A stretch of DNA of 63,972 bases, filler included, from Reclinomonas americana ATCC 50394 (Eukaryota): NCBI GenBank assembly GCA_048213135.1. It is 21 parts of 21 records of this genome, joined end to end, with 100 filler letters (N's around TTAATTAATTAA, not from the genome) between each part and the next. Parts side by side here need not be neighbours in the genome. Positions count along the whole stretch, not along the records: positions 58,773 to 60,924 come from AFZH01021354.1; positions 61,025 to 62,858 come from AFZH01021355.1; 19 more parts are not named here. One strand, 5' to 3'. Below the pieces are notes generated by a model. That model was not told the origin of the DNA, did no database searches, and saw only the letters and a program-made list of their open reading frames with translations. The translations under genes were made by a program, and so were the position numbers. Below, in pieces: positions 58,773 through 61,295 of the stretch. Each line of letters begins with the position of its first letter. Positions within the stretch are counted from its first letter, which is position 1.

Positions 58773-59319
58773 GGTGTTGTCTGTCGCCGTCACTCCCGAC
58801 AGTCAGCACGTCGTGAGTGGCAGTGATGACCACGCAGTGAGTGTGTGGTCACTGGAGAGTGGAACGGAAGTGCGCCGGTTGGAGGGACACGTTGCTTGGG
58901 TTCACTCTGTTGCTGTCACTCCCGATGGTCTCCACGTTGTGAGTGGCAGTAGGGACATGACCGTGCGAGTGTGGTCACTGGCGAGTGGCAAGGAAGTGCA
59001 ACGGCTGGAGGGACACACTGAGGAGGTGTCGTCTGTAGCCATCGCTCCCGATGGCCAGCACATTGTGAGCGCAGACTATGCTGGAATACTGCGGGTGTGG
59101 TCCACTCCGTATGGCCTCGCGCAGCGCGAGCTGCACGAAGCGCGTTCGGCCATGCTGACCGTGCAGGACGTGCAGCGAGAGGCTAGGGTCGGCACTGAGG
59201 AGGAAGAACAGGTCGACTCGCGCTGGCTGCCCGAGATGGCACTGCGCTGCTTCATCGTGGAGGACGCAGCGACGATTGTGTATCGATGCCTCTCGGATTC
59301 TGACCTGCTGCTCTTGTGA
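58773..59319 (+). CDS. Intronless WD40 protein, copy 1 (5' end lost in gap)
   Basis: Three WD repeats of the type LEGH...V.SVAVTPDG..VVSGS.D.TVRVW, followed by the shared tail PYGLAQRELH...VDSRWLPEMALRCFIVEDAATIVYR. Confidence 0.9.
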
Positions 59320-59573
59320 TTCTTGTGTTTGTTTCCCTTCCCCTTGTTTGTGCCTTGTCATGACTTTCTTCAGTGAACCTGCCTGCTGTACTGTGAATGA
59401 GAGAGCGTCTCTGAACGTCGATCGTCGTGTAAAAAGAGCAGGACTGTCCTTTCTCTGCCTGCCCATCCCCCAAAAAATTTCTCTCGCGATCCCCCCCGCC
59501 CCCGATGGATTATGAAAGGGTGTCCCCGTGACCCCCCATTCTCTCGATCTCTCTCCGTCTCTCTGCGCACACA

Positions 59574-60650
59574 ATGTTCACACACGCTGCAACTTGCACG
59601 GGTCACATTGAAGCGGTGTTTTCTGTCGCCGTCACTCCCGACGGCAAACACATTGTGAGTGGCGGCGGAAATAGGTCAATGCGAGTGTGGTCACTGGAGA
59701 GTGGTGAGGAGGTGCGGCGGCTGGAGGGCCACACAGGAGGGGTGTGGTCTGTCGCCATTACTCCCGATGGTCTCCACGTTGTGAGCGGCAGTGATGACAG
59801 AACTGTGCGAGTGTGGTCACTGGCGAGTGGCGCGGAGGTGCGACGGATGGATGGTCACACGTATTGGGTGTCGTCAGTCGCCGTCACTCCCGACGGCAAG
59901 CGCGTGGTGAGTGCGAGTTGGGACGACACGGTGCGAGTGTGGTCGTTGGTGACTGGACAGCTAGTTTTCCTGATCGAGGGGTACCATGACCATGTGCAGT
60001 CAGTTGTCGTCACTCCCGATGGGCGTCACATTGTGGGTGGGAATTGGCTCGGCATTGTGCATGTGTGGTCTCTGACCACTGGCAAGGAGGAGGACTCGCT
60101 GGAGGGCCACACGGACTGGACGACCGCAGTGGCAGTCACTCCCGACGGCCAGCACATCGTGAGCGGTAGCAAGGACCGCACAGTGAGAGTGTGGTCACTG
60201 GCGAGTGGAAAGTTAAAGGAAGTGTGGCGGTTGGAGGGGCACAGTGATGAGGTTACTTCTGTGGCCATCACTCCCGATGGTCTCCACATTGTGAGCGGAG
60301 GTGCAGATAACACCGTGCGAGTGTGGTCACTGGCGAGCGGCGAGGAAGTACAACGGCTAGTGGGTCACACTGCAGCGGTGTCGTCTGTGGCCATCACTCT
60401 CGATGGTCGGCATGTGGTGAGCGGGAGCGAGGACGGAACAGTGCGAGTGTGGTCCGCTCCGTATGGCCTCGCGCAGCGCGAACTGCACGCGGCGCGTTCA
60501 GCCATGCTGGCTGTGCAGGAGATGGCTCAGGAGGAGGTCGACTCGCGCTGGCTGCCAGAGATGGCACTGCGCTGCTTCATCGTGGAGGACGCAGCGACGA
60601 TTGTTTATCGAACTCGACGCCTCTCGGATTCTCCTCAGTTCCTTTTGTGA
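59574..60650 (+). CDS. Intronless 7-repeat WD40 protein, copy 2 (complete, 358 aa)
   Basis: Single ORF with seven ~42-aa WD repeats and the same C-terminal tail. Confidence 0.93.
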   Translation: MFTHAATCTGHIEAVFSVAVTPDGKHIVSGGGNRSMRVWSLESGEEVRRLEGHTGGVWSVAITPDGLHVVSGSDDRTVRVWSLASGAEVRRMDGHTYWVSSVAVTPDGKRVVSASWDDTVRVWSLVTGQLVFLIEGYHDHVQSVVVTPDGRHIVGGNWLGIVHVWSLTTGKEEDSLEGHTDWTTAVAVTPDGQHIVSGSKDRTVRVWSLASGKLKEVWRLEGHSDEVTSVAITPDGLHIVSGGADNTVRVWSLASGEEVQRLVGHTAAVSSVAITLDGRHVVSGSEDGTVRVWSAPYGLAQRELHAARSAMLAVQEMAQEEVDSRWLPEMALRCFIVEDAATIVYRTRRLSDSPQFLL

Positions 60651-60813
60651 TTGTTGTGTTTGTTTCCCTTCCGCTTGTTTGTGCCTAGTCATGACTTTCT
60701 TCAGTGTACTGTACCTGCTGTGCTGTGAATGAGAGAGCGTCTCTGAACGTCGATCGTAGAGTACATGAGCAGGACAGTCTCGATCTCCTTCCGTCCGTCT
60801 CTCTGCGCACACA

Positions 60814-61295
60814 ATGTTCACACACGCTGCAACTTGCACGGGGCACACTGATACAGCATACTCTGTTGCCTTCACTCCCGACGGTCAGCGCATCGTGAGC
60901 GGGAGCGGTGACAGCACAGTGCGCNNNNNNNNNNNNNNNNNNNNNNNNNNNNNNNNNNNNNNNNNNNNTTAATTAATTAANNNNNNNNNNNNNNNNNNNN
61001 NNNNNNNNNNNNNNNNNNNNNNNNTGGTCGGCATGTGGTGAGCGGGAGCGAGGACGGAACAGTGCGAGTGTGGTCCACTTCGTATGGCCTCGCACTTCGC
61101 GAGCTGCACGCGGCGCGTTCAGCCATGCTGGCTGTGCAGGAGATGAAGCGGGAGGAGGCTGGCGCTGCCGCTGTGGAGGAAGAAGAGATCGACTCGCGCT
61201 GGCTGCCAGAGATGGCACTGCGGTGCTTCATCGTGGAGGAGGCTGCGGTGATTGTGCATCGATGCCTCGCTGATTTTTCTCAGTTCCAGTCGTGA
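60814..61295 (+). CDS. WD40 protein, copy 3 (middle lost in gap; the gap may hide further copies)
   Basis: The start MFTHAATCTGH is identical to copy 2 and lies 1240 bp downstream of it. After the gap come the last repeat and the tail IDSRWLPEMALRCFIVEEAAVIVHRCL. Confidence 0.85.

Follow-up and report, generated by a model that had tools for sequence, protein, structure and literature searches.

What does a free-living, single-celled flagellate do with a tandem array of WD40 genes whose repeats differ at the same few residues? This question is raised by an array at positions 58774-61295 of a 63,972-nt stretch of DNA from the jakobid Reclinomonas americana ATCC 50394 (GCA_048213135.1), which we refer to as the window; unless another locus is named, coordinates count along this whole stretch. 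An earlier note, made from the DNA alone, had described the array as a candidate diversified receptor system of variable propellers with a constant tail. In the following, we describe the array and the large family to which it belongs, and we consider it likely (roughly 60%) that this family is a selected repertoire of binders, with variable propellers made of sensor repeats of the NOD-like receptor (NLR) type and a common, native two-helix dock. It looks like a large recognition repertoire, and how free-living protists recognize viruses and intracellular bacteria is largely open; with its many members, its defined variable residues, a single constant domain for docking and an NLR-like link in the same genome, the family makes this question testable.

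The array lies between assembly gaps and is encoded on the + strand throughout. Copy 1 has lost its 5' end at a gap and retains its last three WD40 blades and its tail (58774-59319, tail 59098-59316). A duplicated spacer of 254 bp (59320-59573) separates it from copy 2, a complete intronless gene for a seven-bladed WD40 propeller and tail (59574-60650, 358 aa), which translates as a single open frame from an ATG at 59574 to a stop at 60650. Behind a second duplicated spacer of 163 bp (60651-60813), copy 3 starts at 60814, exactly 1240 bp beyond the ATG of copy 2, and runs for 37 codons into the next gap (60814-60924). The end of blade 7 and the tail of a last copy follow at 61025-61295 (tail 61071-61292), and this may be copy 3 or some later copy. 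The proposed head-to-tail arrangement, with a unit of about 1240 bp that includes intergenic DNA, is thus borne out, as the spacers were duplicated along with the genes. A second scaffold (G000:C328) matches the array region at 87-96%, and since it covers about 6.5 kb there, the array in full likely comprises about five copies. In this second version, the tail of copy 1 carries a frameshifting deletion of 16 bp.

Copy 2 yields seven WD40 matches in Pfam and none in its final 66 residues. Its AlphaFold model, based on a 60-row alignment, has a mean predicted local distance difference test (pLDDT) score of 92.9 and shows 28 strands that form a seven-bladed propeller, followed by two helices (residues 296-318 and 326-349; pLDDT in the tail 72-87); the nearest solved fold to the propeller is a Thermomonospora WD40 domain (5yzv). 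The orphan tail (60450-60647) consists of a helix, an acidic variable linker and a second helix with an L-x-x-x-x-L-R-C-F-x-x-E core. The model begins with the propeller and has no N-terminal effector domain of the kind that characterizes the fungal HNWD/NWD proteins. Likewise, there is no NACHT domain upstream, as the gene starts 254 bp past the preceding stop, a distance that leaves no room for a NACHT or any further domain, and as Pfam reports propeller families only. The claim of a NACHT-less propeller with a conserved tail therefore holds. The tails of copies 1 and 2, by contrast, had been called almost identical, which is true of the second-helix core alone; overall, they are 81% identical and differ by a 9-aa indel in the linker.

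These copies are not among just a few in the genome, as a search for the tail had been suggested to reveal. All 150 scored candidates of such a search matched (1530 candidates in all), and two DNA patterns from the tail gave 682 and 1226 exact matches genome-wide and none in reversed controls, so that array and family are not a product of chance. The first pattern recovers 73 of 129 independently found tails, the second 201 of the 225 tails in hand. Since conserved genes, such as Skp1, the E2s and a divergent gene on C12 and C2946, mostly occur twice, the assembly seems to hold two haplotypes, with about 600 family genes per set, a count that takes in older intron-bearing relatives and broken copies. 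Among 224 tails, 127 are found on open frames with at least five blades and 28 on short or broken ones, while 69 are not judgeable. Repeat number is seven in 26 of 31 cases, five in four and eight in one. The intronless state noted earlier is valid for the array, but not across the family.

The variability is concentrated at a handful of positions. With GH as positions 1-2 of the repeat, positions 4, 5, 7, 23 and 25 each accommodate 19-20 different residues among 505 distinct repeats (entropy 3.3-3.8 bits). In HET-E of Podospora anserina, the codons reported as positively selected are 7, 9, 25 and 27, two pairs at the top face of the propeller that each flank a conserved codon, 8 or 26 (PMC1805685). 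In our own mapping, these four appear to be equivalent to positions 5, 7, 23 and 25, in agreement with the match that had been stated before. All nine residue triplets after GH and all 11 loop tetramers listed in the earlier note recur in our translations, although much of this variety lies between the blades of one gene.

To 72 of 86 intact genes, the remainder being near-duplicate or frameshifted (11) or off-length (three), we fitted GY94 codon models with our own code rather than codeml. Model M8 was favored over M8a with twice the log-likelihood difference (2dL) at 336 and a ratio of nonsynonymous to synonymous change (omega, or dN/dS when counted) of 2.0 at about 10% of sites, and 26 of the 29 flagged sites fall at the five variable positions; omega is 0.24 in the scaffold and 0.22 in the tail. 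Pair counts at the variable sites gave dN/dS values of 1.68, 1.67 and 1.90 for 3, 13 and 12 paralog pairs (88-93, 83-88 and 78-83% identity), compared to 0.32-0.35 elsewhere in the gene for the same 28 pairs, with synonymous differences at variable codons near the gene average; a bin at 70-78% identity (ratio 3.85) was saturated and left out. Within a subfamily of 29 genes, omega is 2.2 on one tree (2dL 190) and 1.8 with one tree per blade, and eight of eight neutral simulations with blade recombination remained at or below an omega of 1.2 and a 2dL of 8.8. Among paralogs, both counting and models with a shared synonymous rate thus recover selection at the HET-E codons, with position 25 (HET-E 27) being the weakest. 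Targeted hypermutation, as by diversity-generating retroelements, was considered and rejected, given that the variable codons contain each of the four bases and that young pairs show no elevated synonymous change at them.

Repeats within a gene share on average 68% of their nucleotides and 62% of their residues. They are no more alike (identity 0.787) than repeats from other blades of other genes (0.786) and therefore not homogenized within genes; the nearest repeat lies in the same gene for just 6 of 418 repeats. The internal conservation of at least 85% and the concerted evolution of the HNWD/NWD genes are accordingly not seen. Instead, blades are exchanged between genes and in register, with 10 paralog pairs of the 29-gene subfamily sharing one or two blades at 93-99% and the others at 76% or less, although part of this apparent exchange may stem from short-read chimeras. 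Of the repeat shuffling that had been proposed, recombination between genes is therefore supported and a HET-E-style homogenization within genes is not. Shuffling across positions was dismissed as the main mode because it is rare: repeat pairs with at least 90% identity comprise 53 from the same position and two from different ones. Compared blade for blade, most top-face residues of copy 2 agree with those of copy 3 in the other version. Internal identity, in our own approximation of the measure by Hu et al., is 0.40 for copy 2, with a median of 0.50; it reaches 0.4 in 60 of 72 genes and 0.7 in none.

The same repeats occur in a different context. The genome encodes a large NACHT family (97 matches scored of 287 candidates), mostly in frames of 900-1700 aa, with NLR-like NACHT-WD40 loci at L151:6570-9998 (-), L160:457-2658 (+) and L296-L298. 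All four NACHT-WD40 genes examined, three of them fetched as the repeat region downstream of the NACHT match, have about 14 repeats with the consensus and variable positions of the stand-alone family, and all four end in a different motif without the C-terminal tail; one NACHT N-terminal half likewise gave no match to the tail. One NACHT gene precedes a gene with the tail by about 1 kb. Scaffold DNA has an identity of 0.74 when NLR repeats are compared with stand-alone ones, 0.76 within the stand-alone set and 0.57 to 624 bacterial repeats; the highest repeat identity of an NLR to a stand-alone gene is 0.90, so that no very recent exchange is seen. In a quick tree, 48 stand-alone and eight NLR propellers are placed on one side and 20 bacterial ones on the other (SH-aLRT 100), with the NLR halves unresolved within their side. 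Judged from these sequences, the link to HET-E is closer than analogy, because the NACHT-WD40 genes of this very genome use the same repeats. At one NACHT N-terminus, an R-x4-H motif accompanies a weak match to a Swt1-like HEPN domain that stays below the cut-off (E 0.021), and the NACHT-WD40 genes may be RNase-armed NLRs. By eye, a pentapeptide-like stretch precedes the repeats of the NACHT genes.

The tail is an amphipathic helical hairpin, and a model of its 66 residues alone (pLDDT 76) shows two long helices. Among 1.84 billion representatives, a search with a profile found six proteins: an expressed sequence tag (EST)-derived protein of R. americana, three divergent WD40-plus-tail proteins of other assemblies and two repeat-driven chance matches (P0003 and P0006), which we discarded as relatives. 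A tail search of longer proteins returned only three already in the profile, the Atlas gave no usable match, and relatives were confirmed for 0 of 19 candidates in viral contigs and 0 of 126 in metagenome contigs. PDB sequences yielded no credible match, and in a Foldseek search all matches had E values above 1 and a best Z of 7.2, not above the noise of helical hairpins. Neither F-box nor PRANC profiles, which would mark known receptor families, matched the tails, and the three sub-threshold matches of a genome search with SOCS_box fell at none of the listed tails. The tail thus appears to be an undescribed domain, with occurrences outside this species in only three other assemblies in that search.

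Within the genome, the tail is also found on other proteins. Once per haplotype, it ends a protein of the UBC/E2 fold (L169:748-1569 (+) and L170:743-1477 (-)), with 48-50 bits in the tail profile and weak UQ_con and E2 matches; by eye, the usual catalytic position holds no cysteine, and the protein is probably catalytically altered. Furthermore, all five short-frame loci that we fetched (L211-L215; G000:C180, C71, C66, C1248 and C6569) are older, divergent, intron-bearing propeller genes, some in tandem arrays, in which a separate final exon encodes the tail (splice sites by eye). By this distribution, the tail is older than the amplified family, and mobile. Weak E2-like matches without a tail cluster at G000:C78:84700-88200 and C303:69500-72100, about 10 kb from WD40-tail genes. 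The host encodes both Skp1 and Elongin C. The sole Elongin C found (L105:1495-1869 (+)) is divergent and has a FAPLK insertion common to three other proteins, and a second, divergent Skp1-like gene is present (L103, L104). When the tail was modeled in complex with the host Elongin C, read through an intron, and with P0011 in place of Skp1, the prediction scored 0.02, without alignments and with an uncertain partner fold, and it weighs neither for nor against binding. By eye, the second tail helix bears a likeness to motifs of the cullin-box or BC-box type.

Systems with hypervariable WD40 sensors or with expanded adaptor sets are already known, and the family shares features with several of them. 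The closest relatives in its own genome, the NACHT-WD40 genes, have the same repeat consensus and variable positions and fall into one tree group with it against the bacterial repeats, but encode proteins of about 1400 aa with a NACHT domain, about 14 repeats and another C-terminus. Receptors that join WD40 propellers to a SOCS box, the WSB type, provide a further precedent. As in the HNWD/NWD NLRs of P. anserina (HET-E, HET-D; PMC1805685, PMC4986451), the repeats span 42 codons, the same four top-face codons are selected, repeats are exchanged between genes and repeat number varies to some extent. Unlike these, the R. americana family has no NACHT or N-terminal effector, a C-terminal tail, a single propeller, about 600 genes rather than 10, and no allele-level excess at the selected sites; its within-gene repeats are 68% identical, whereas those of fungal NLRs are described as an 85% internal-conservation class (PMC4986451). 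In nematode F-box genes, the adaptor-binding module is reported to be conserved and the substrate-binding domain positively selected (PMC8120010), and the family resembles nematode and plant F-box expansions as well as WD40-SOCS-box receptors in its hundreds of tandem genes, its small module under purifying selection, its selected binding domain and the reuse of the module, but its tail matches neither an F-box nor a SOCS-box profile. Lastly, it fits the Moderately-Repetitive class of WD40 proteins (Hu et al., 2017; PMC5587647), with its internal identities of at least 0.4 and below 0.7 over six repeats; this is a descriptive class for which the available text of that paper contains no comparable expansion or tail. 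For a NACHT-free WD40 family of such size in a jakobid, with a tail and repeats shared with NLRs, we found no paper in the open-access literature, supplements aside.

What is observed is tandem duplication, in-register exchange of blades between paralogs, excess amino-acid change at the top face, strong purifying selection in both scaffold and tail, and a tail that also occurs with unrelated N-terminal domains. In the binder repertoire that we favor, each propeller would grip a different target, probably a foreign one such as a virus or bacterial protein in the cytosol, and the tail would dock every member onto one shared partner. In the simplest history, an old gene with the tail would have had its propeller replaced by NLR-type repeats, and the resulting gene would then have been amplified. 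As to the mechanism, the likeliest single candidate, although still doubtful, is that of a ubiquitin adaptor akin to F-box and SOCS-box substrate receptors: the layout and the division of selection would parallel those of nematode F-box genes, and the tail on the E2-fold protein may point the same way. We do not rate it higher because no profile supports membership in the F-box or SOCS-box families. With about as much doubt, one may imagine a two-tier intracellular immune repertoire with one hypervariable WD40 pool, in which NACHT NLRs stand beside some 600 sensors without NACHT. These sensors would shuffle their blades in register and connect, by way of the new helical domain, to a common ubiquitin or signaling machine that includes the tail-bearing E2-fold protein. 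A role of the family in immunity and an 'effector' nature of the tail, as proposed in the earlier note, both remain inferences. If true, the family would carry receptor diversification of the HET-E type into Discoba and demonstrate that NLR sensor repeats can be reused without NACHT.

Several results weigh against the favored reading. With a free synonymous rate per class, omega drops to 0.95 for all 72 genes and to 0.52 for 43 older genes, including that of the window, so that only the 29-gene subfamily stays above 1 (1.62, p 0.0004) and shows selection at the HET-E codons. Where variable-site residues are unchanged, the older set shows elevated third-position differences (0.68 vs 0.44), which may reflect saturation or whole-codon turnover. 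In 12 near-identical pairs, probably mostly alleles with some tandem neighbors, dN/dS at the variable sites is 0.6. Frames are short or broken under 28 of 155 judgeable tails, no Pfam family, including F-box, PRANC and SOCS box, matches the tail (18 + 6 + 1 tails scanned), no expansion of Skp1 or Elongin C was seen in the genome (four and three matches), and the tree is unrooted for the direction from NLR to stand-alone genes. The low values outside one subfamily and in the allele-like pairs, together with the broken frames, are what a largely neutral tandem amplification would leave, with a tolerant top face drifting by birth and death. We nevertheless regard this as quite improbable: counting and shared-rate likelihood give values above 1 among paralogs at synonymous levels near the gene average, the simulations fail to reproduce the signal, and scaffold and tail are strongly purified in hundreds of copies. 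The pairs with 0.6 also bear on HET-E-type allorecognition, in which the alleles of a locus would differ in specificity and discriminate strains. Its appeal lies in the shared four positions and in the frameshifted tail of one version of copy 1, but the allele-level hypervariability expected of it is not supported by these pairs, and copy 2 differs from its counterpart on G000:C328 at five aligned residues, only one of them at a variable site. With two versions compared per locus, allelic variation at the specificity residues, as in the HNWD/NWD genes, was not observed, and allorecognition is very unlikely. The diversifying selection proposed earlier is thus found between paralogs and not visibly between alleles, as the near-identical pairs show.

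Two further explanations accept the repertoire and differ in what it does. In a split NLR-like system, the tail would be a module for self-assembly or signaling, and instead of serving a cullin ligase, the sensors would oligomerize or else team up with NACHT proteins or with enzymes that bear the tail, for instance the E2-fold protein. The hairpin nature of the tail, the repeat pool in common with NACHT genes, one of them adjacent to a tail-bearing gene, and the single E2-fold gene per haplotype would all suit this possibility, which comes next after the ubiquitin adaptor among the mechanisms but which we still deem rather unlikely; since the NACHT proteins seen lack the tail and end in another motif, a like-with-like link to them is not evident. 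A diversified adaptor set without a role in defense, for varied bacterial prey or for the turnover of many host proteins, is improbable. WD40 propellers are general adaptors, and the older, divergent, low-copy tail-bearing propellers fit a housekeeping origin, but positive selection on the top face and the repeats shared with NLRs would fit conflict better, to go by what is reported for HET-E and nematode F-box genes (PMC1805685, PMC8120010). Bacterial contamination or an assembly artefact, finally, has next to no probability, even though the array lacks introns and the most similar outside propellers in our searches come from bacteria, with up to 51% identity. The array lies among spliced eukaryotic genes in two scaffold versions, no tail match better than E 0.26 was obtained in 80 bacterial loci, and the host propellers group apart from bacterial ones. 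In addition, the EST-derived protein matches a family member (G000:C5977) at 100% identity over 116 aa, which places the family in this jakobid and shows that at least one of its genes is transcribed. The check for contamination demanded earlier is thus negative, and the genome is that of the host.

The neighboring genes, all spliced and eukaryotic, encode ELP1, a CFAP47/65-like protein, Tam41 and an Arf-family GTPase. The GTPase gene (55819-57847 (-)), which looks like ARL6, runs across an assembly gap, so the window contigs are in true order. On the other side, a spliced gene with several hydrophobic segments (61487-62380 (-)), by eye similar to transporters of the major facilitator superfamily, converges on the array. 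Elsewhere in the genome, a subfamily with a unit of 3.2 kb (L047:6600-8700 and similar) has a probable first exon of four codons (splice inferred), which appears to be all that is added to its N-terminus; its duplicated spacer of 2.2 kb contains several tracts resembling splice acceptors and no clear gene. The window also contains minisatellites at 18881-19555 (73-bp unit), 53856-54269 (25 bp) and 55395-55613 (31 bp), the latter two of which have a CAGCGAG core in common.
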